Assembly (NCBI GenBank): GCA_017466275.1
Contig: JAFTUL010000013.1
Span: 39,343-103,342 of the forward strand
Length of the DNA: 64,000 bases
Reading direction: 5' to 3'
Source: Clostridia bacterium
Lineage (GTDB): Bacteria > Bacillota > Clostridia > UMGS1883
Shown piece after piece: positions 2,596-58,667 of the stretch. Each line of letters begins with the position of its first letter. The stretch's first letter is position 1. The position numbers were made by a program, and so were the translations under genes. The notes under the pieces were generated by a model that was given only the letters and a program-made list of their open reading frames with translations, did no database searches and was not told where the DNA came from.

Positions 2596-3798
2596 TCATC
2601 TTTCGAGGAATCTTTTCATTATTGTATAACCGTCAGTGATTTTCTCCCCGTATTTTTCAGCATCCTTTTCGATAAAACGGTGTCCGGTGTTTGCACAGTC
2701 ACCCTTTTTGTACATTACGCAGGGAACAGGCTCTCTGCTGTGTGTTTTTGTGGCAATGGGTGTAGGATGGTCTGGCATTACCAAAAATGCGTAATCTTCG
2801 CCGGCCTCATCCAATTTTTCCTTTATATAACCGATTATTTTTTCATCAATAATTTCAAGAGAACGTGTTTTTCCCTCTGCATCACCCTGATGACCGCATT
2901 CGTCGGGAGCTTCAAGGTGAACGTACACCAAATCTGCACCGTCTTTTAAAAGTGCATCGGCAGAGGCTTTTGCCTTACCCTCGAAATTTGTGTGGAGATT
3001 TCCCGTAGCACCGTCAACATCAATGCTGTTCATTCCTGCAAGAATTGCAATCCCTTTTATAAGGTCAACTGCAGACACCACAGCACCCTTTTTACCGTAG
3101 GTTTCATAGAAATTGTTAAGTGCTGGCTTTGTACCCTCGCCCCAAATCCACATAGATGTTGCAGGATTCTTTCCCTCGGCAATTCTCTTTTGATTGATGG
3201 GATGGTTTTTAAGGATTTTTTCACTCTTTTTCATTAAATCGAGGATTCTTTCGTCGGAGGGGAGATAATCCTTGATTTTTCTGTCGGAAATGTCGTGGGG
3301 AGGTGTCAGGGTGAAGCTTTCGGGAGCATCATCCCACACGAAGAGGTGGCGGTAGCTGATTCCACCGTAGAAATGAATATCTCCGCCGCCAAGCTGCTTT
3401 TCGATTTCCGCCATAAGTGCACGGCTTTCCTCTGTTGTGATTTCGCCCGAGGAGTAGTCAAGCATAGTTTTGTCCTCGTAGTTTTCCTCGTCGGAAAGAG
3501 TTACAAGGTTTGCACGGAATGTAGTCTGGTTATCGGCAATTTTAACGCCGATAGAAGCCGCCTCCAGAGGAGAACGTCCAGTATAGCAATCAAGTGGATT
3601 ATATCCCATTACGGAAAGGTTTGCAACATCACTTCCCGGTTTGAGGGAGTCGGGAACGGTCTTTACAAGAAAAAGAGAACCGTTGGAAGCAAAGTAATCC
3701 ATGTTGGGAGTATTGCTTTTTTCAAGAGGGGTAAGTCCGCCTAAAGAATCTATCGGAAGGTCTGCACAGCCATCCGTAAGTACAATTACATATTTCAT
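2596..3798 (-). CDS. apgM: cofactor-independent phosphoglycerate mutase, archaeal-type (ApgM family)
   Basis: 400 aa. N-term MKYVIVLTDGCAD and alkaline-phosphatase-superfamily motifs typical of ApgM. Confidence 0.8.
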   Translation of the reverse strand: MKYVIVLTDGCADLPIDSLGGLTPLEKSNTPNMDYFASNGSLFLVKTVPDSLKPGSDVANLSVMGYNPLDCYTGRSPLEAASIGVKIADNQTTFRANLVTLSDEENYEDKTMLDYSSGEITTEESRALMAEIEKQLGGGDIHFYGGISYRHLFVWDDAPESFTLTPPHDISDRKIKDYLPSDERILDLMKKSEKILKNHPINQKRIAEGKNPATSMWIWGEGTKPALNNFYETYGKKGAVVSAVDLIKGIAILAGMNSIDVDGATGNLHTNFEGKAKASADALLKDGADLVYVHLEAPDECGHQGDAEGKTRSLEIIDEKIIGYIKEKLDEAGEDYAFLVMPDHPTPIATKTHSREPVPCVMYKKGDCANTGHRFIEKDAEKYGEKITDGYTIMKRFLER

Positions 3799-3909
3799 AT
3801 TATCATCGCCTTTCGCATTTTATTATAGCAATTTAAACAGGGGTTTTCAAGGAAAAATGTATAAAATTTGTTAAAAGGAGTAATTTATAACCTTAGAGGT
3901 GACTGAAAA

Positions 3910-5232
3910 ATGACTGATTCTTTAAAGAAAAACCGAATTCTTGTGATTTTATCCGTTCTTTTGATTGTGACGGGGATTTTTGCCTTTATGCAATACCGGC
4001 GGGCACAGAAGCTGACCTATTTTCAGAATGTCGAGTATAACAGAGTCTTTTCCGAGCTTAGCGAAAGTGTGGACGACCTTGAAATTTCCCTTTTAAAAGG
4101 GCAGGTAGTGTCAGGGGACAGCCAGCTTATAAAGCTTTCAGCCGACTTGTACGGTCAGGCAAGTGCAGCTAAGGCAAACCTTGCCCTGCTTCCGATGAAA
4201 GGACAGACCCTTGCAAAAACCTCCGAATTTCTGGCACAGGTAGGCGAATACGCCAACAGCTTGTCGGACAAGATGCTTCGGGGTGAGGAAATTTCTCAAA
4301 AGGAAATAACCACAATGCAGGAGCTTTTAGAGTATTCGAGAATCCTCAAAAAAGCCTTTGACAAAATGCTTGTCGACATAAATGAGGGAAAAATCTCTTT
4401 TTCGGATGATAAGAGTATTTCAGGAAGGCTTACCGGTGCAAAGGCAAGCCTTTCGGGAGAGCTTTCGGGATTGGAAGAGGAGTTTCACGATTATCCGTCG
4501 CTTATTTATGACGGACCGTTTTCACAGCATCTTACCCAGAAAGAATCAGTTTTCCTTAAAGGAAAGGCAGAAATTTCGCAAAAACAGGCAATAAAAAAAG
4601 CCCGTATTCTTACGGGAGAAGATGCAAAGAGTGTTACGGAAATAAAAGGAAAAATTCCGTCATATTCCGTTAATGGGAAAAACACTGTGGCTGAATTTAC
4701 AAAAAAGGGCGGAGTGCTTCTGCTTTATATGAAAGACAGAGTGTCGGAAAATGAAAAAATTTCCCTCAAAAGTGCAGACCAGTCTGCACAAAGGTTTCTT
4801 CGTGAAAACGGCTTTTTCGATATGACGGAAAGCTATTACGAGAAAAAAGACGGAAGTGTTGTTATAAATTATGCCTACAAACAAGATGAATATACGGTTT
4901 TCCCTGACCTTGTAAAGGTAAAGGTAGCCCTTGATAACGGTGAGGTAATAGGCTTTGAAAGCCTTGGGTATGTTACAAATCACATTTACAGACAGATTCC
5001 CGAGGAAAAAATAAGCAGTGAGGAAGCTCTTTCAAAAGTGGGGACACATCTTAAAACAGAAAGTGTCACAAAGGCAATAATCCCGCTTGACGACGGAACA
5101 GAAAAGGCTTGCTGGCAGATTCAGGGAACTGTTTCCGATAGACATTTCCTGATGTATGTAAATACCCAGACGGGCGATATTGAAGACGTACAAATTCTCC
5201 TTGAAAGCGACGGAGGAATTCTGGCAGTATAA
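3910..5232 (+). CDS. ypeB: germination protein YpeB-like (N-terminal TM anchor, PepSY-type C-terminus)
   Basis: 440 aa. N-terminal TM helix. Architecture and local similarity to B. subtilis YpeB (…YNRVFSEL…LALLPMKGQTLAKTSEFLAQVGEYA…). Confidence 0.6.
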   Translation: MTDSLKKNRILVILSVLLIVTGIFAFMQYRRAQKLTYFQNVEYNRVFSELSESVDDLEISLLKGQVVSGDSQLIKLSADLYGQASAAKANLALLPMKGQTLAKTSEFLAQVGEYANSLSDKMLRGEEISQKEITTMQELLEYSRILKKAFDKMLVDINEGKISFSDDKSISGRLTGAKASLSGELSGLEEEFHDYPSLIYDGPFSQHLTQKESVFLKGKAEISQKQAIKKARILTGEDAKSVTEIKGKIPSYSVNGKNTVAEFTKKGGVLLLYMKDRVSENEKISLKSADQSAQRFLRENGFFDMTESYYEKKDGSVVINYAYKQDEYTVFPDLVKVKVALDNGEVIGFESLGYVTNHIYRQIPEEKISSEEALSKVGTHLKTESVTKAIIPLDDGTEKACWQIQGTVSDRHFLMYVNTQTGDIEDVQILLESDGGILAV

Positions 5233-14661: not shown

Positions 14662-14711
14662 AATGTATAGAAACCTTTAAAAAAGGAAACAAAGTTCCTC
14701 GGAGGCGAGGA

Positions 14712-14822
14712 GGCCCTTTGCCATTTTGAACGCCAAAATGGCGAAAAGCGGTGGGGAATCGGAACCCCCGCGTTTTTGGTACTTTTGGCTCCCAAAAGTA
14801 CATCGTCCCCTGCTATTCAGCA
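14712..14822. repeat. short copy of modular stem-loop repeat family (modules rcZ-rcY-rcX-HP1)
   Basis: Matches the reverse complement of modules in the 56.2 kb and 32.8 kb copies. tttgccattttgaacgccaaaatggcgaaaagcgg is exact. Hairpins ggggaatcggaaccccc, gtacttttggctcccaaaagtac and ctgctgaatagcag are present. Confidence 0.7.
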
Positions 14823-14865
14823 GAAGTTTATGCTTTTTTAAAAGCTTTTCTTTTATTTTTCCTTG

Positions 14866-17910: not shown

Positions 17911-17937
17911 GAGTCCATAACGGACTCCTTTTTTGTA
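17911..17937 (+). terminator. lysC rho-independent terminator
   Basis: ggagtccataacggactcc followed by TTTTTTG. Confidence 0.75.
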
Positions 17938-17946
17938 TGTGTTTTT

Positions 17947-18045
17947 CTACGAACAAACTTTACCTCTCGCTGTACCTTTGTACAGCTTCGGGTACTCCCT
18001 TCGGGTTCAGTTTGTCCGTTCTGCAACATTTTCTCGTTGCCATTT
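17947..18045 (+). repeat. inverted-repeat element copy 1 (3' flank of cysK)
   Basis: ~75% identical to the reverse complement of 19019..19117. Compensatory changes preserve the internal hairpins. Confidence 0.7.
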
Positions 18046-18063: not shown

Positions 18064-18990
18064 TCATTTTGTAAACAATTCTGTGCTTAAATACCTCTCT
18101 CCGCTGTCGGGAAGAAGAACTACAATCGTTTTTCCCTTGTTTTCTTCTCTTTCGGCAAGGATTTTTGCACCGTGGAGAGCCGCACCTGAGGAAATTCCCA
18201 CAAGGAATCCCTCTTTTGTGGCGAGGGAACGGCCTGCAGTAAAGGCATCCTCTGCCTCAATTGTGATGATTTCATCACATATAGCTTTGTCAAAGGTGTC
18301 GGGAATAAAGTTTGCACCAATTCCCTGAATTTTATGGCTTCCGCTTCTGCCCTCGGTTATAAGGGGGGAGGAAGCAGGCTCAATCCCTACAATTTTTATG
18401 TCGGGATTTTTTTCTTTCAGATATTTTCCGGTACCGCTTATTGTTCCGCCCGTGCCGATGCCTGCAACGAATATATCTATTTTACCCTCGGTGTCTTCCC
18501 ATATTTCAGGACCTGTCGTTTCATAGTGGGTCTTAGGATTGTCGGGGTTTATGAACTGTCCGGGAATGAAGCTTCCCTCATATTTTTCTTTAAGCTCATT
18601 TGCTTTTTGCACAGCACCATTCATTCCAAGGCTTCCCTCGGTCAGAACAATTTCCGCACCGTAGGCTTTGAGAAGATTTCTCCTTTCAACGGACATAGTG
18701 TCGGGCATTGTGAGGATTAGCTTGTACCCCTTTGCCGCCGCAACGGATGCAAGTCCTATGCCTGTGTTTCCGCTTGTTGGCTCAATAATAACACTGCCCT
18801 CTGTAAGAAGCCCCTTTTTCTCCGCTTCCTCAATCATTTTTACGGCAATGCGGTCTTTACTGCTTCCTGCAGGGTTCATACATTCAAGCTTGGCAATGAT
18901 TTTTGCCCCGAGATTATTCTCTTTTTCATAATTGCAAAGCTCTAAAAGAGGGGTTTTCCCCACAAGCTCCGTTATCTTTTTATAAATCAT
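18064..18990 (-). CDS. cysK: cysteine synthase A (O-acetylserine sulfhydrylase)
   Basis: PLP-lysine motif SSKDR. Full-length CysK similarity. 308 aa. Confidence 0.9.
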   Translation of the reverse strand: MIYKKITELVGKTPLLELCNYEKENNLGAKIIAKLECMNPAGSSKDRIAVKMIEEAEKKGLLTEGSVIIEPTSGNTGIGLASVAAAKGYKLILTMPDTMSVERRNLLKAYGAEIVLTEGSLGMNGAVQKANELKEKYEGSFIPGQFINPDNPKTHYETTGPEIWEDTEGKIDIFVAGIGTGGTISGTGKYLKEKNPDIKIVGIEPASSPLITEGRSGSHKIQGIGANFIPDTFDKAICDEIITIEAEDAFTAGRSLATKEGFLVGISSGAALHGAKILAEREENKGKTIVVLLPDSGERYLSTELFTK

Positions 18991-19018: not shown

Positions 19019-19117
19019 AGAATGGGAGAAAGTAGTGCAGAATTGACAAACTGAACCCGCAGGGGTTACCCGAAGGCGTACGAGGGTACGTCGAGCGGTG
19101 AAGTTTGTCGATAGCAA
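19019..19117 (-). repeat. inverted-repeat element copy 2 (5' leader of cysK)
   Basis: Reverse complement aligns with 17947..18045. Lies between the likely cysK promoter and the start codon. Confidence 0.7.
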
Positions 19118-19254
19118 AACGAAGTAATAATAGGAATTTGCAAAAAGCAAATTCCTACTAAAAACAATCAAAGAAAAAATGTTTTCGCATTTAATAAAAG
19201 TAATCAATATATATTCTTTTCGTTTTGCGGTCGGTGCTGCTTTATCACATTCGC

Positions 19255-31316: not shown

Positions 31317-31502
31317 ATGCAAAATGAAGAAGCAATGTGTTACATAACCTACGCCGTACCTGCAAGACTGCTCCCGAATCTTCCCTTGGGAGAGAGAGTT
31401 ATGCCGATAGAAAGTGTAGAGGAAGAGCCGCCAATGCTTTACCCCGAGGGGTTTATGGCCGATTGGTTTTTAAATGGGCGTTTTCCGGAGGATGAAGAAT
31501 AA
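31317..31502 (+). CDS. small acidic hypothetical protein (61 aa)
   Basis: GAGGTGA RBS 5 nt upstream. No similarity recognised. The stop directly abuts a repeat copy. Confidence 0.35.
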   Translation: MQNEEAMCYITYAVPARLLPNLPLGERVMPIESVEEEPPMLYPEGFMADWFLNGRFPEDEE

Positions 31503-31506
31503 AACA

Positions 31507-31645
31507 AAATTCCGCTGAGTAGCGGAGGACGATGTGCTTTTGGGAGCCAAAAGATTTTATAGGGGAACAGGGGGATTGCGATTTCCCCCTTAGCTCCCCT
31601 ATGACCCCATAACCCCTTGAAACGCCCTCGCAGGGGCGTAATATT
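31507..31645. repeat. short copy of modular stem-loop repeat family (HP1-X-Y-W modules)
   Basis: ccgctgagtagcgg, cttttgggagccaaaag, gggggattgcgatttccccc and acgccctcgcaggggcgt are hairpins homologous to modules at 56.2 kb. Confidence 0.7.
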
Positions 31646-31958
31646 TATTGGGCGTGGTTTTCTTTAACTGTCGGGTTTTGTTTTTGAAACTGCCTTGCCT
31701 TTGCGACATCTAAATGCATTGATAAACTTATTATCAGGCATTTATAAATTCTGTCCGCCCGCAGAGGAAAATGATGCGGACAGAATTTTGTCGGTCGGCT
31801 TCGTTGTTTCAAAAACAGTAGTTTGCGAGTATAAAAAACAGAAAAATTCAAAATATAAAAGCGTATAGCATATTAAAACTCTATAAGATACTTCCTAAAA
31901 AATAGTCAATAGAATATACTAATAATACTTAATCTATGCTATTTGCTTGGAGGATTGT

Positions 31959-32282
31959 ATGGAAAAGAAGGCTTTAGGTAAAAAATTACGTGAGGCAAGA
32001 AACAGCAAAAAATATACGCGTGAAGTTCTTGCAGAAAAAGCTGATATAGGCGTTATGTATCTTGGAGAAATTGAAAGAGGGGTAAAACTGCCCAGTTTGA
32101 AAGTTTTTATCAGATTAGTGGAAGCACTTGAAGTTTCTGCTGACTATATTCTCCGAAACGAATTATCTTCAGGGAAAGAGTATATCTTTGATGAAATGAC
32201 TCGAAAACTTGAGAATTTGACACCTCAACAACGAAAGACTGCGACAAGTATTTTAGACGCATATATTGATAATTTATCATAA
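31959..32282 (+). CDS. XRE-family helix-turn-helix transcriptional regulator
   Basis: Cro/C1-type HTH (…REVLAEKADIGVMYLGEIERGVKLPSLKVFIRLVEAL…). ATG after GGAGGA. 107 aa. Confidence 0.75.
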   Translation: MEKKALGKKLREARNSKKYTREVLAEKADIGVMYLGEIERGVKLPSLKVFIRLVEALEVSADYILRNELSSGKEYIFDEMTRKLENLTPQQRKTATSILDAYIDNLS

Positions 32283-32310
32283 GAGCTGAAAATTCAGCTC
32301 TTTTTTTATA
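32283..32310 (+). terminator. terminator after XRE gene
   Basis: aagagctgaaaattcagctcttttttt. Confidence 0.7.
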
Positions 32311-32408
32311 TTTAGCATATGTTTCGACAAAAATCGTCATCCCCTTGTGCTATAATAAGCATATAGCATACATTAAATGCTAATAGCTAATGAAAGGAAG
32401 AAAGAAAA

Positions 32409-32576
32409 ATGCCAATAGGAGTAGAAAAAAGATTAGACGAATTAGGAAGAGTTGTAATTCCAAAAGAACTTAGAGACTTTTATCATCTTAATGAAAAAGT
32501 AACATTGGTTGAAACAGAAAAAGGGATTTTAATAACAAATCCTCAGTATGTAATGGTTAAGGTTGAGGAAAAATAA
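32409..32576 (+). CDS. AbrB/MazE/SpoVT-family DNA-binding domain protein (55 aa, N-domain only)
   Basis: MPIGVEKRLDELGRVVIPKELRDFYHLNEKVTLVETEKGILITNPQYVMVKVEEK resembles the swapped-hairpin domain of AbrB (…VRKVDELGRVVIP.ELR…). Extended -10 TGcTATAAT upstream. Below the 60 aa cutoff, so absent from the ORF track. Confidence 0.75.
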   Translation: MPIGVEKRLDELGRVVIPKELRDFYHLNEKVTLVETEKGILITNPQYVMVKVEEK

Positions 32577-32582
32577 ACGAAA

Positions 32583-32622
32583 AAGACACAAAAAGGGGCA
32601 GGTCTCCTTTTTGTGTCTTTCT
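32583..32622 (+). terminator. terminator after AbrB-like gene
   Basis: gacacaaaaagg...cctttttgtgtc 12 bp stem followed by TTTCTGTTT. Confidence 0.7.
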
Positions 32623-32640
32623 GTTTGAGAAGAAAAGGTG

Positions 32641-32925
32641 GGTTTTGAGAAATTCTTTGTTGACTGGCGTAAAAATCGCTCGTATCAACTTCCTTTGCTG
32701 ACGAGCGATTTTTAGTCCGCAAGGAAATAAGTTTTCCTTTTAGGACGGCGACACCAAAACAAATAATTTCGAAAAACAAAACCATTTTTGTTATTAAGAA
32801 CAAGTATTTGCTTTCTTACGCCCCTGCGAGGGCGTTGAGGGGAGTGGGGAGAATCGCAACTCCCCACCGCTTTTCGCCATTTTGGCGTTCAAAATGGCAA
32901 AGGTCTCTGCGACTCCGCAGAATGG
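32641..32925. repeat. long copy R1 of modular stem-loop repeat family (L-W-Y-Z-HP1rc)
   Basis: 32641..32820 is the reverse complement of 56286..56465. 32818..32920 carries W (acgcccctgcgagggcgt), Y (ggggagaatcgcaactcccc), Z (cgccattttggcgttcaaaatggc) and ctgcgactccgcag. Confidence 0.8.
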
Positions 32926-33013
32926 CTTGCACTTGTGCAAAAAGTTTGAATTTTTTGCAACCAAAAAGGGAATCCAAAAACGAGGATTCCCTTTGTTGTA
33001 TTTAAAAAGTTTT

Positions 33014-36860: not shown

Positions 36861-36937
36861 TGGGTATCAGTCCTTTTGCTAAAAGGTATTTTGTCGAAAA
36901 ATTTGTTTTTGATTGCAGAAGTGCAAACTATTCTTCT

Positions 36938-37232
36938 TGAGCACTAAACTACGGCTTTTGCAAATTTTCTGTCGGCTACCGTGAAATTGCGAGCACCATT
37001 TTCCTCTGCTGGCGAGCAATTTCAGGCGAACAGGCAACTGAGTGTTGCCTTAAAGCCGGCGGTTCAAAGACGGAAAATTTACAAAAACGAAAACAATACA
37101 GTAAAAGAAAACCACGCCCGCAAAGGGACACGCCCCTGCGAGGGCGTTGAGGGGAGTGGGGAGAATCGCAACTCCCCACCGCTTTTCGCCATTTTGGCGT
37201 TCAAAATGGCAAAGCCCTTAATCGGCACCGAT
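36938..37232. repeat. copy R3 of modular stem-loop repeat family (M-W-Y-Z-end hairpin)
   Basis: ~90% identical to 56467..56766, including acgcccctgcgagggcgt, ggggagaatcgcaactcccc, cgccattttggcgttcaaaatggc and the terminal taatcggcaccgatta hairpin. Confidence 0.8.
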
Positions 37233-37264
37233 TAGTTTTGTTTCTTTTTAAAAGAACCTTATCA

Positions 37265-55847: not shown

Positions 55848-56090
55848 TTATTTTATCTCCTGTTCGAGGGAATTAAAAACTTCTGTGGAGAAAAATTCCT
55901 CAAGGGTAATTTCAAGACCGTCACAAAACTTCTTGATTGTTCTGATGGATATATCACGGCGGGATTCGTCAATCATACTGTACGCCGTAGACGGAGTAAC
56001 GCCTGATATATTGGCTAATTCGTTAATTTTCCAGCCCTTTTCATTGCATAACTGCAAAAATCTTTCAACAATAGCATCTTTGATATCCAT
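55848..56090 (-). CDS. XRE-family HTH transcriptional regulator (80 aa)
   Basis: HTH_3 pattern (…WKINELANISGVTPSTAYSMIDESRRDISIRTIKKFCDGLEI…). Confidence 0.7.
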   Translation of the reverse strand: MDIKDAIVERFLQLCNEKGWKINELANISGVTPSTAYSMIDESRRDISIRTIKKFCDGLEITLEEFFSTEVFNSLEQEIK

Positions 56091-56177
56091 TGAAAACTCA
56101 CCTCAAGGATATTTTACTCTCTTTTACGATTGTGCGTATACGCACACGCGTGCTACACTGCAAGATTTGCAAACAAT

Positions 56178-56766
56178 TTCTGCGGAGTCGCAGAGGACGG
56201 TGTACTTTTGGGAGCCAAAAGTACCAAAAACGCGGGGGTTCCGATTCCCCCGCACCCCTGAAACGGCCTCGCAGGGGCGTAAAAAAGCAAATACTTGTTT
56301 TTAATTACAAAGATGGTTTTGTTTTTCGAAATTATTTGTTTTTGTGTCGCCGTCCTAAAAGGAAAACTTATTTCCTTGCGGACTAAAAATCGCTCGTCAG
56401 CAGCGGAAGTTGATACGAGCGATTTTTACGCCAGTCAACAAAGAATTTCTCAAAACCCGACTGTTCTACCGAAGCACTAAACTAAGGTTTTTGCAAATTT
56501 TCTGTCGGCTACCGTGAAATTGCGAGTATTAGTTTCCTCTGCAGGCGAGCAATTTCAGGCGAACAGGCAACTGAGTGTTGCCTTAAAGCCGACGGTTCAA
56601 AGACGGAAAATTTGCAAAAACGAAAACGATACATTAAAAGAAAACCACGCCCAAGAAATATTACGCCCCTGCGAGGGCGTTGAGGGGTGTGGGGAGAATC
56701 GCAACTCCCCACCGCTTTTCGCCATTTTGGCGTTCAAAATGGCACTCCCCTAATCGGCTCCGATTA
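56178..56766. repeat. largest composite copy R2 of modular stem-loop repeat family (HP1-X-Y-W / rcL / M / W-Y-Z-end hairpin)
   Basis: 56180..56280 carries the ctgcggagtcgcag, gtacttttgggagccaaaagtac, gggggttccgattccccc and acggcctcgcaggggcgt hairpins. 56286..56465 is the reverse complement of 32641..32820. 56467..56766 is ~90% identical to 36938..37232. Confidence 0.8.
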
Positions 56767-56845
56767 AATACCTGCAATTTCTTGCAATAAAAAACAAAAT
56801 TTTGCAATAAAAAATACTTTTTTGCTAAAAGTATGCGAAAAACTC

Positions 56846-56875
56846 TTGATTTTCCCCCTGCCTTGGTATTATAAT
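56846..56875 (+). promoter_or_regulatory. strong sigma-A promoter of potABCD
   Basis: TTGATT, 18 nt spacer, TATAAT. Two TTGCAATAAAAAA direct repeats lie upstream (56782..56794 and 56802..56814). Confidence 0.55.
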
Positions 56876-57120
56876 ATAATAAGCAAACGATTTCTTTGGA
56901 ATCTTAATGCAAATATAGGACCACTCTCATGGGAGTCGAGGCCATACGGACAGCCGGGTCCACTGCCTATTGATTGAGTTAAAAGCTCAGTTTTATAAGT
57001 TGGTTACTTTATAACCGAAATGCGTAATTGCGCTAACTTGTGAAATGGTCAATAAGAGTAGTGACTCTGTATGTCCAATATCTTAAATTTTCTTAGGAAA
57101 TTTGTCTTTTTTGAGATATT

Positions 57121-57160
57121 AACACAAGTCGTGTAATTGCGATTTGTGTTTTTTATTTAC
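57121..57160 (+). promoter_or_regulatory. intrinsic terminator (attenuator) inside the potA 5' leader
   Basis: AACACAA-gtcgtgtaattgcga-TTGTGTT followed by TTTTTTATTT, 20 nt before the RBS AAGAGGTG. Upstream ACTTGTG (57046..57052) can pair with the 5' arm as an antiterminator. Confidence 0.55.
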
Positions 57161-57179: not shown

Positions 57180-58667
57180 ATGGCAAACAACGTAATCATT
57201 GAACTTAAAAATGTATCCAAGCATTTCGGGCAGACGTATGCTGTGGAGGATTTCAACCTTTATGTCAAGAAAGGGGAATTTGTAACCTTTTTGGGACCAA
57301 GCGGATGCGGAAAGACTACCACTCTCCGAATGATTGCAGGATTTGAGCTTCCTACGGGCGGACAAATTCTCCTAAACGGGGAGGATATTTCCCTGCTTCC
57401 GCCGTACAAACGCCCTGTAAATACTGTATTCCAGAAGTATGCTCTTTTTCCTCATATGGATGTGTATGACAACATTGCTTTCGGTCTGAAGCTGAAGAAA
57501 ATTCCCGACGGGGAAAAGACGAGAAAGCTTACCAAAGAGGAAATTGACAAAAAAGTCAGGAAAGCTCTTAAAATAGTTGACCTTGAAGAGTACGAAAACC
57601 GTGATATATCCACCCTTTCAGGCGGTCAGCAGCAGAGAATTGCCATTGCCCGTGCTATTGTAAATGAGCCTGAAATTCTTCTCCTTGACGAGCCTTTGGG
57701 TGCTCTCGATTTGAAAATGAGAAAGGATATGCAGCTTGAACTTAAGGAAATGCACAAGAAACTCGGCATCACCTTTATATACGTAACTCACGACCAGGAG
57801 GAGGCACTTACTCTCTCCGACACGATTGTGGTTATGAAAGACGGTATGATTCAGCAAATCGGCACTCCCGAGGATATTTATAACGAGCCCAGCAATGCCT
57901 TTGTCGCAAACTTCATCGGTGAAAGCAATATTTACAGCGGTACGGTGACGGGCGACAAAAAAGTCAGATTTATAAACCACGTTTTTGATTGTGTTGACGA
58001 ATTCCCGAAAAATGAAAAGGTTGATGTGGTAATCCGTCCCGAGGATGTTCATATTACAAGTGCTGACAGCGGTATGGCAAAAGGCAAAATTGTCAGCAAA
58101 ATTTTCAAGGGCATCCACTACGAATACATAATGATGGTTGGCAGAAACGAGCTTGTCATAGTTGATACAAGGGATTTGAATGTGAACGAAACCTACGGCT
58201 TTGACATTGAGCCTGACGGTATTCACATTATGAAAAAGGAACTTACCTCCAATATCTACAATGATGCCTACATTGACAAGGAAAACCGTGTTGTTATTTC
58301 CGAATGTCCCTTTGAATGTGACATTACTTCTCTTGTGCAAGGCTCTATCGTTGACAGTGAGGGCTATGTTGTAGGCCCTGACGGTACACGTTACGACTTT
58401 ACTGATGCGGATGTCCGTGCAGAAATCGGACTCAAGGATATTGAAATCCTCGACGACGAGGAAGCAGGTGTCGTAAAGGGTGAGATTGTTTCCATTATAT
58501 ATAAGGGTGACCATTATCAGCTTACAATCCGCACTCCCGAGGATGAAGATTTTGTTCTTGATACTGAATATACATATGACGAGAACGACCTTGTAGGTCT
58601 TAATGTACGCCCTCAGGACATAAAGCTTACATTGAAAGGAGAGGCGAAGAAATATGCAAAAAAATAA
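57180..58667 (+). CDS. potA: spermidine/putrescine ABC transporter ATP-binding protein PotA with extended C-terminal TOBE region
   Basis: Walker [10 protein letters not shown], signature LSGGQQQR, Walker [12 protein letters not shown]. 495 aa, ~120 aa longer than a typical PotA. Confidence 0.85.

Follow-up and report, generated by a model that had tools for sequence, protein, structure and literature searches.

Head-to-head structured repeat units in the gene spacers of uncultured gut Clostridia

What is the hairpin-rich sequence that fills the spacer between a small regulator gene and a polyamine transport operon in the genome of a Clostridia bacterium, and to what kind of element do its relatives belong? 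The spacer occupies positions 56178-56766 of a 64,000-nucleotide stretch of contig JAFTUL010000013.1 (assembly GCA_017466275.1), which we call the window, and it is flanked on one side by a small XRE/HTH gene (55848-56090, minus strand; Pfam HTH_26/HTH_3) and on the other by the promoter and leader of the pot operon. A preliminary description, made by eye, had taken it for a composite of hairpin modules, shuffled between five copies in the window, that might be an element of the REP or MITE (miniature inverted-repeat transposable element) kind, or a structured RNA. Comparison of its copies within and beyond the window shows a multi-copy, non-coding unit, confined to one lineage, whose single-strand fold is under selection; it has two invariant motifs, forms inverted pairs, and has undergone modular recombination and given rise to deletion derivatives. 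Set against Rfam and against plasmid and phage collections, it is best read as a new family, akin to REPIN, BIME and MITE sequences; the two initial guesses, mobile element or structured RNA, are the readings that still stand.

The repeat unit

Repeat finding in the window aligns 56460-56751 with 36927-37218 at 90% identity, as had been noticed by eye, and finds 56234-56476 to be 90% complementary to 32622-32864, with shorter matches at 14.7 and 31.5 kb. Repeats of 243-292 nucleotides at this level of identity are far beyond chance. The 180-bp block that had been taken for the exact reverse complement of 32641-32820 is indeed complementary to it, in 173 of its 180 bases (96%). A sensitive blastn search of the region against the window adds two weaker relations: the whole region is an inverted repeat of itself, with 65% identity over 639 nucleotides, and its right half, 56486-56790, also aligns with 32641-32943 at about 70% identity.

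A single unit of about 300 nucleotides underlies all copies. It consists of a body of about 150 nucleotides, a variable linker of about 40 and a tail of about 110. The body is a three-way junction of stems P1, P2 and P3; the tail contains a near-invariant 18-mer, H1, with consensus TTACGCCCCTGCGAGGSCGTT, then hairpins H2, H3 and H4, and carries at its end a motif of the form TTGCA..TGCAA (TTGCA-N4-6-TGCAA). The core of H1, CGCCCCTGCGAGG, is exact in 70 of 79 tails. The order P1/P2/P3, H1, H2, H3, H4 is constant in alignments of 5, 35, 51 and 67 copies: once the five window copies are placed in one orientation, they display one fixed architecture. The related pieces seen earlier at 14.7, 31.5, 32.8 and 37.1 kb are thus present, in one order rather than several, and the shuffling attributed to successive modules occurs at another level, where body types and tail types reassort.

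The composite itself joins two of these units: D, on the minus strand, and C, on the plus strand, stand head to head with adjacent bodies and outward tails, a form that we write T-B-B+T+ (Table 1). Comparison with other copies and with locus L045 makes the full element slightly longer than the spacer as first given, about 56159-56799. The hairpins described by eye are all found at their places, and their interpretation changes: those at the 5' end, listed as separate modules, are the tail of unit D on the opposite strand, and hairpins counted as different are homologous, with compensatory changes. Examples are ctgcg-GAGT-cgcag and taatcggctccgatta, or gtacTTTTGG..CCAAAAgtac and cgccattttggcgttcaaaatggc; other homologous positions oppose GTACTTTTGG..CCAAAAGTAC to CGCCATTTTGG..CAAAATGGC, and CTGCG..CGCAG to AATCGG..CCGATT. 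Since the two diverged units stand head to head with their tails outward, the tails act like long structured terminal inverted repeats.

Could the region be a chance similarity, an assembly artefact or a cryptic coding sequence? Several open reading frames (ORFs) of 43-139 amino acids do overlap it, and metagenome contigs often break at the element. Yet the longest open frames average 82 codons, against 70 in dinucleotide shuffles, no ORF is conserved across copies, and one-base indels separate the unit types, so that the initial view of a non-coding spacer holds. A type I toxin or other small protein, for which the hydrophobic 61-residue ORF at 56295-56480 was the candidate, was rejected: the frame is not kept in other types, the types differ by 1-nucleotide indels, and the open frames are of near-shuffle length. 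The element recurs unchanged in assemblies made independently (L068-L071), and it is therefore not an assembly artefact. With profile searches, about 60 bodies and about 80 tails can be placed in the genomes of several species, where their flanks are syntenic. Together with the 90% repeats in the window, this leaves such explanations with hardly any credibility.

Fold, covariation and strand

The structure of the body was first proposed by eye, and 62 bodies were realigned with a covariance model, R1, of 155 positions and 49 pairs. Standard pairs occupy 88.7% of the cells, compared with 65.6% in shuffles and 41-47% when the partners are slid; 46 of the 49 pairs show changes on both sides, and the covariation score is 0.507 versus 0.171. 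In the tail (model R2), 90.1% of cells are paired, versus 74.1% in shuffles, and H2, H3 and H4 covary. All these pairing figures overstate independence, the alignments being fitted to the proposed structure and the sequences related; the slid-partner control and the many distinct pair types make the body fold convincing nevertheless. The mean z-score of the minimum free energy, over 44 units, is -6.3. Two checks suggested at the outset, a search for copies in relatives and a covariance model with a covariation test, thus gave copies and positive covariation.

Two parts of the unit behave differently from the rest. The stem of P2, 12-13 bp long, turns over completely in sequence between types and caps a conserved 17-nucleotide loop (ATCAnTTTCCYCTGCnG; the body of unit C holds it as ATYAnTTTCCYCTGCnG). 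H1 is near-invariant as a sequence, with a C·C mismatch in 51 of 77 tails: it is a conserved motif, and its hairpin is putative. A pseudoknot between the P2 loop and H1 was considered and found unsupported, because the loop varies (CCTC, CCGC, CCTT) and H1 does not. Outside the two near-invariant motifs, the sequence has drifted across species to 45-65% identity. Most MITE and REP families have no multi-helix fold of this size. Constraint of this degree is usually a sign of a specific partner, either protein or RNA.

Which strand folds? An A·C mismatch on one strand is a G·U pair on the other. Read on the body-to-tail strand, P1, P1b and P2 contain 67 G·U cells and 14 A·C cells; the counts are 74 and 41 for the whole body, and 68 and 43 for the tail. 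The body-to-tail strand also folds more stably in 28 of the 44 units. TTTT is found within 9 nucleotides 3' of H2 in 70 of 79 tails, and AAAA before H2 in 2 of 79: H2 has the G+C-rich hairpin and U-tract of an intrinsic terminator, and that of unit D is called on the minus strand in a terminator scan. Some tail types end in a further hairpin, GTGTGAT..ATCACGC, followed by TTTTTT. Taken together, the G·U excess, the fold stability and H2 with its U-tract suggest that the body-to-tail strand is the one that folds, and they agree with an RNA. In single-stranded DNA, G·T is the most tolerated mismatch as well.

These observations bear on a possible, if rather doubtful, explanation, namely that the units are genes of a structured non-coding RNA family. 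Transcription of each would run from body to tail and end at the H2 U-tract, yielding an RNA of about 250 nucleotides; the composite would be a divergent pair of RNA genes, the P2 loop (UUUCCYCUGC) and H1 putative binding sites for a protein or a target RNA, and the multi-copy, mobile-looking distribution would resemble that of HEARO/omega-RNA-type RNAs. The strong covariation in a complex multi-stem junction argues for it, as do the terminator signature in the body-to-tail orientation only, the loops kept while stems vary, the tandem G·A pairs tolerated within helices (122 cells) and the strand bias, although the cells are not independent events and the bias in the tail is weak. It leaves unexplained why H3 and H4 covary beyond the putative terminator, and why H1 is kept as a sequence, C·C mismatch included. 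A promoter scan finds no sigma-70-like promoter in the element, and in solo units the sequence upstream of the P1 foot shows no conservation; there is no Rfam family and no associated protein gene near the units. Two internal promoters seen as candidates were discarded: TAAACT before P1, found by eye, has no -35 box, and a TTGACn/TATCAn pair in P1b-P2 would place the start inside the P2 loop, leaving the covariation of P1 and P2 unexplained.

Copies in the window and in related genomes

Table 1. The composite, its parts and the other copies of the unit, in window positions, with the evidence for each
Feature	Position	Strand	Evidence
Whole composite, unit D + unit C	56159..56799	.	blastn self and cross matches; nhmmer architecture map; right edge from L045; ends from tail flanks
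Unit D, terminal motif, TTTGCAAATCTTGCAG on unit strand, TTGCA-N4-6-TGCAA type	56158..56173	-	Tail-end comparison across loci
Unit D, H4, ctgcggagtcgcag	56180..56193	-	Tail model R2 match 56156-56290, minus strand, 132.9 bits; H4 covaries
Unit D, H3, gtacttttgggagccaaaagtac	56202..56224	-	Helix 3 97% paired, 5/9 pairs compensated
Unit D, H2, G+C-rich hairpin then TTTTT on unit strand	56232..56253	-	Terminator scan 56261-56224; H2 covaries
Unit D, H1 motif, ACGCCCCTGCGAGGCCGT on unit strand	56263..56280	-	Near-invariant in all tails
Unit D, body, three-way junction, P1/P1b around hairpins P2 and P3	56311..56466	-	Model R1, 154.1 bits; covariation
Unit C, body, same three-way junction	56477..56631	+	Model R1, 147.3 bits; covariation
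Unit C, H1 motif, acgcccctgcgagggcgt	56663..56680	+	Sequence and tail alignments
Unit C, H2, gtggggagaatcgcaactccccac, then cgcTTTTc	56689..56712	+	Sequence, tail model, covariation
Unit C, H3, cgccattttggcgttcaaaatggc	56720..56743	+	Sequence, covariation
Unit C, H4, taatcggctccgatta	56751..56766	+	Sequence, covariation
Unit C, terminal motif, ctgcaatttcttgcaat	56773..56789	+	L008, L024 and L036 share this end before flanks diverge
Unit A, D-type body with C-type tail	32632..32945	+	R1 151.2 bits, R2 117.9 bits; clustering
Unit E, third body type; tail with 22-nt G-run insertion between H1 and H2	31488..31826	-	R1 and R2 matches
Unit B, solo C-type copy	36944..37257	+	R1 and R2 matches; comparison with L027 and L047
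Copy F, head-to-head pair of tails without bodies, fused inside H2	14673..14847	.	R2 matches on both strands; synteny with L004 and L041

The other window copies record losses and exchanges. Just before unit B, 36912-36933 is the leftover outer end, about 20 nucleotides, of a deleted D-type partner: L027 and L047 hold the full D+C pair there. Copy F is, to judge from synteny, a deletion derivative, since L004 and L041 hold a full composite at that site. Site-specific recombination is not needed for its origin; H2 is palindromic, and inverted H2s share direct homology in their stems. The fusion point lies in H2 for copy F, and at H1 in L024. Clusters of bodies and clusters of tails are incongruent, as unit A exemplifies, and the junction of reassortment is at H1, the longest invariant stretch.

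How far does the family extend? A genome scan with the H1 pattern ACGCCCCTGCGAGGSCGTT, one genome per species, gave 53 genome loci, nearly all from about a dozen uncultured gut and rumen metagenome-assembled genomes (MAGs) of Clostridia, Oscillospiraceae and Acutalibacteraceae; the few matches in other phyla showed no unit homology. Metagenome contigs gave 14 matches to the pattern, of which 3 are real, viral contigs gave none, and plasmid and phage collections, searched with blastn in distant mode, gave no match to the element. The T-B-B+T+ composite is the commonest form, with 12 complete examples in the fetched loci and several truncated ones besides. The units also occur as solo B+T+ (body type 6 is always solo), as tail-only pairs (copy F, L024), as tails bracketing a gene (L019, a PD-(D/E)XK gene of family PDDEXK_4), as units bracketing genes, and in internally deleted forms.

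Related MAGs, 80-94% identical, share sites and differ in content: a site may hold different unit types in different species, and one type may be found at different sites. Locus L045 joins the pot operon directly to the block formed by an XRE gene, an AbrB gene and unit A. This junction differs from that of the window, so a rearrangement separates the two genomes, with breakpoints at units. Two genes stand between units E and A in the window, one of XRE type (31947-32282) and one AbrB/MazE-like (32409-32576). This pair (31947-32576; HTH_3, 111 amino acids, and 55 amino acids) sits exactly between the bodies of E and A and has its own terminator, 32585-32620. In the related MAG of L006 and L015, a plain composite without the two genes occupies the E..A site, and in L045 the gene pair adjoins the pot operon. 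An unrelated hairpin-rich inverted repeat of 110 nucleotides (17926-18035 and 19026-19135, 75% complementary) brackets a housekeeping gene for a pyridoxal phosphate (PLP)-dependent enzyme (18064-18990, minus strand), so bracketing alone is weak evidence for cargo. The tail model R2 gives no match to that repeat: the genome contains more than one family of structured spacer repeats.

Copies lie tightly between genes, 15-130 nucleotides from gene ends, with tails abutting 5' and 3' ends about equally and no bias to starts or ends. Within 2 kb of the units, in about 50 loci, no neighbouring gene family recurs beyond synteny. One may ask whether they are simply host-domesticated spacer modules that are not mobile, and that serve as two-way terminators, stabilisers of mRNA 3' ends or insulators, spreading slowly by recombination or gene conversion, a mode of spread proposed for many REP/BIME and ERIC copies. 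The proximity to gene ends is what it would predict, as are the orthologous sites kept across species, the outward terminator-like hairpins and the presence of unrelated hairpin-rich spacer repeats in the window (at 17926-18035 and 19026-19135) and in L015 (4298-4419). We consider it unlikely, for the genes on either side of the studied copy diverge from it, so that a terminator would serve no purpose there, a 150-nucleotide three-way junction with conserved loops far exceeds the needs of a terminator, and a given site carries different types in related species, just as a given type turns up at different sites.

Several observations concern the neighbourhood of the units. Upstream of potA (ATG at 57180), a sigma-70-like promoter (56846-56875) is followed by an SpF59/ldcC leader RNA (56918-56969; Rfam RF02440, 59.9 bits), outside the repeat element, and by a terminator-like hairpin with a T-run (57121-57150); the arrangement resembles that of a polyamine transporter leader of the attenuator or riboswitch type. 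The TTGCA-N4-6-TGCAA palindrome is found at unit ends at 56158-56173, 56773-56789 and 32927-32945, in its perfect form TTGCAC-TT-GTGCAA in unit A, and the pot promoter is preceded, just beyond the edge of the element, by an extra TTGCAAT copy at 56796-56812. This palindrome could be an operator for one of the adjacent XRE-type regulators. In the related MAG of L015, the MutS2-PFK spacer in which unit B sits in the window holds at 4298-4419 a different hairpin-rich sequence (ttaaggggacaccccttaac, gtcaaaaacg..cgtttttgac). Finally, a structured insertion of about 110 nucleotides (AGCCTGARCGC...GATGAAGCGATGGCGCAGRGTTGTGCAG...), absent from the window, occurs inside the tail hairpin H2 in L018 (2860-2964), L036 (about 1186-1290), L040 (6341-6445), L044 and L046. 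It always follows GGGGAAYCG and is followed by a near-repeat of it, in several tail types and species; its internal hairpin shows compensatory changes, and it has no Rfam match. One possibility is a mini-element, nested in the unit, with the H2 loop as its target.

Known families and the mobile-element reading

Known families were searched in several ways. With Rfam 15 at gathering scores, the SpF59/ldcC leader is the only match in the whole window, and five related loci give 0 matches; a search of 56100-56850 with E<=10 has a best match at E=1.3, with 16.7 bits against a gathering score of 38. OLE, ROOL, GOLLD, HEARO and raiA RNAs do not reach the Rfam gathering threshold. The alignments contain no RYYYAAC ... 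GTTRRRY core sites of an integron attC, the copies are inverted rather than direct, and there is no integrase among the neighbours; unlike CRISPR repeats, the copies stand in both orientations, at distances of 4-20 kb, and measure about 300 nucleotides. The exclusion of CRISPR, attC and OLE/ROOL/GOLLD, first made by eye, is confirmed, and the proposed Rfam check finds no known family. The literature, searched with the exact strings of H1 and its reverse complement, yields one irrelevant primer match; a keyword search on intergenic repeats or MITEs in Ruminococcus and Clostridia yields nothing relevant.

The element had also been said not to look like REP/BIME, which was too strong: sequences and sizes do differ, and inverted pairs of hairpin units and mosaic recombination are shared. 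REP, BIME and REPIN sequences of Proteobacteria, which RAYT Y1 transposases mobilise, are likewise intergenic, multi-copy hairpin units with mosaic sub-motifs and compensatory change; they act as terminators or mRNA stabilisers and are recombination hot spots, and the inverted doublet of REPINs has its parallel in T-B-B+T+. REP units, however, are palindromes of 20-40 nucleotides with a GTAG-type 5' tetranucleotide (GTAG/CTAC), whereas the unit described here has about 300 nucleotides, a three-way junction and four further elements, and its sole invariant motif on that scale is the 18-mer ACGCCCCTGCGAGGSCGT, with no GTAG. There is no sequence similarity, the host belongs to a Firmicute lineage, and no RAYT gene lies near any copy.

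MITEs such as Correia/NEMIS in Neisseria, RUP in S. pneumoniae and Bcr1 in B. cereus are comparable in being non-coding, under about 650 bp, with inverted ends, situated in spacers near gene ends, with terminator-like hairpins, deletion derivatives and solo halves. Their inverted ends are near-identical over 20-40 nucleotides, and ordinary ones are without strong internal covariation; here the inverted tails present at both ends extend the likeness over about 110-300 nucleotides at 65-90%, with arm identity of only about 65-78%, and covariation is strong. BOX (S. pneumoniae) and ERIC/IRU (Enterobacteria) share modularity (boxA-boxB-boxC) or long imperfect palindromes, stable predicted RNA folds and variable module content, and have no sequence relation to the unit; BOX modules of 45-59 nucleotides stand in tandem rather than as an inverted pair, and ERIC is a single 127-bp palindrome. 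HEARO/omega-RNA (IscB) and TnpB reRNA are structured RNAs of about 200-300 nucleotides, built on multi-stem junctions, that occur many times in a genome and are linked to the ends of mobile DNA. The present family differs from them in having no Rfam match and no IscB or TnpB adjoining any of about 50 loci, and in carrying the same unit, inverted, at both ends, unlike IS200/IS605 elements.

The reading that we prefer, to which we would give about an even chance, is that of a non-autonomous mobile element. It would have spread through gene spacers as DNA, mobilised in trans, by way of a single-stranded intermediate in which the hairpins matter, by analogy with REP/REPIN and RAYT or with IS200/IS605-derived elements. 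H1 would be the probable recognition site of a predicted protein. Copies would then persist and swap parts by homologous recombination at the conserved H1. As H2 with its U-tract (in some types also the terminal hairpin and T6) faces outward, the pair is predicted to stop transcription from both sides or to insulate its neighbours from each other, in this spacer the XRE gene and the pot operon. A further likely effect of scattered copies is to seed deletions and rearrangements.

Several points weigh against this mobile-element reading. Within 2 kb of the units, in about 50 loci, there is no transposase, RAYT, IscB or TnpB; the fetched loci contain no autonomous or cognate insertion sequence with the same ends. 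Copies of one type, whose flanks are scrambled by recombination and whose termini are uncertain by a few bases, show no consistent direct repeat that would be a target-site duplication. The two halves of the composite are only 65-70% alike, far below typical MITE inverted repeats. Copies stand at orthologous sites in genomes that are 80-94% identical, so that recent movement is not demonstrated, and persistence with compensatory change could mean a function at the level of the host. Finally, the excess of G·U over A·C and the orientation of the terminators fit RNA at least as well as single-stranded DNA.

One candidate transposase was examined, the PDDEXK_4 gene between the two tails of L019 (424 amino acids, 2998-4272), and was rejected on account of homologues elsewhere without tails. 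These homologues, in L072-L076, are about 50% identical and adjoin WYL-domain regulators in a defence-island-like context.

A bolder proposal takes the unit for a new large structured RNA of about 250-300 nucleotides, three-way junction and tail hairpins together, which each end of a mobile element would encode and which would be read outward. It would be a guide or scaffold for an undescribed transposition or recombination system, with a protein encoded in trans recognising the invariant H1 and P2-loop motifs. In a related version, a dedicated site-specific recombinase would use H1 as its core site, and would swap or invert the bodies and cargo lying between two inverted H1s. HEARO, which turned out to serve IscB, offers an analogy for the guide or scaffold. 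We regard this as a long shot.

Taken as a repeat family only, the element explains breaks of short-read assemblies in the spacers of gut and rumen Oscillospirales, provides a marker for strain typing, and pinpoints hot spots of rearrangement and deletion between close genomes. If a partner is found, be it a transposase, a recombinase or an RNA-binding protein, the family would represent a new Firmicute mobilisation mechanism or a new class of large non-coding RNA.

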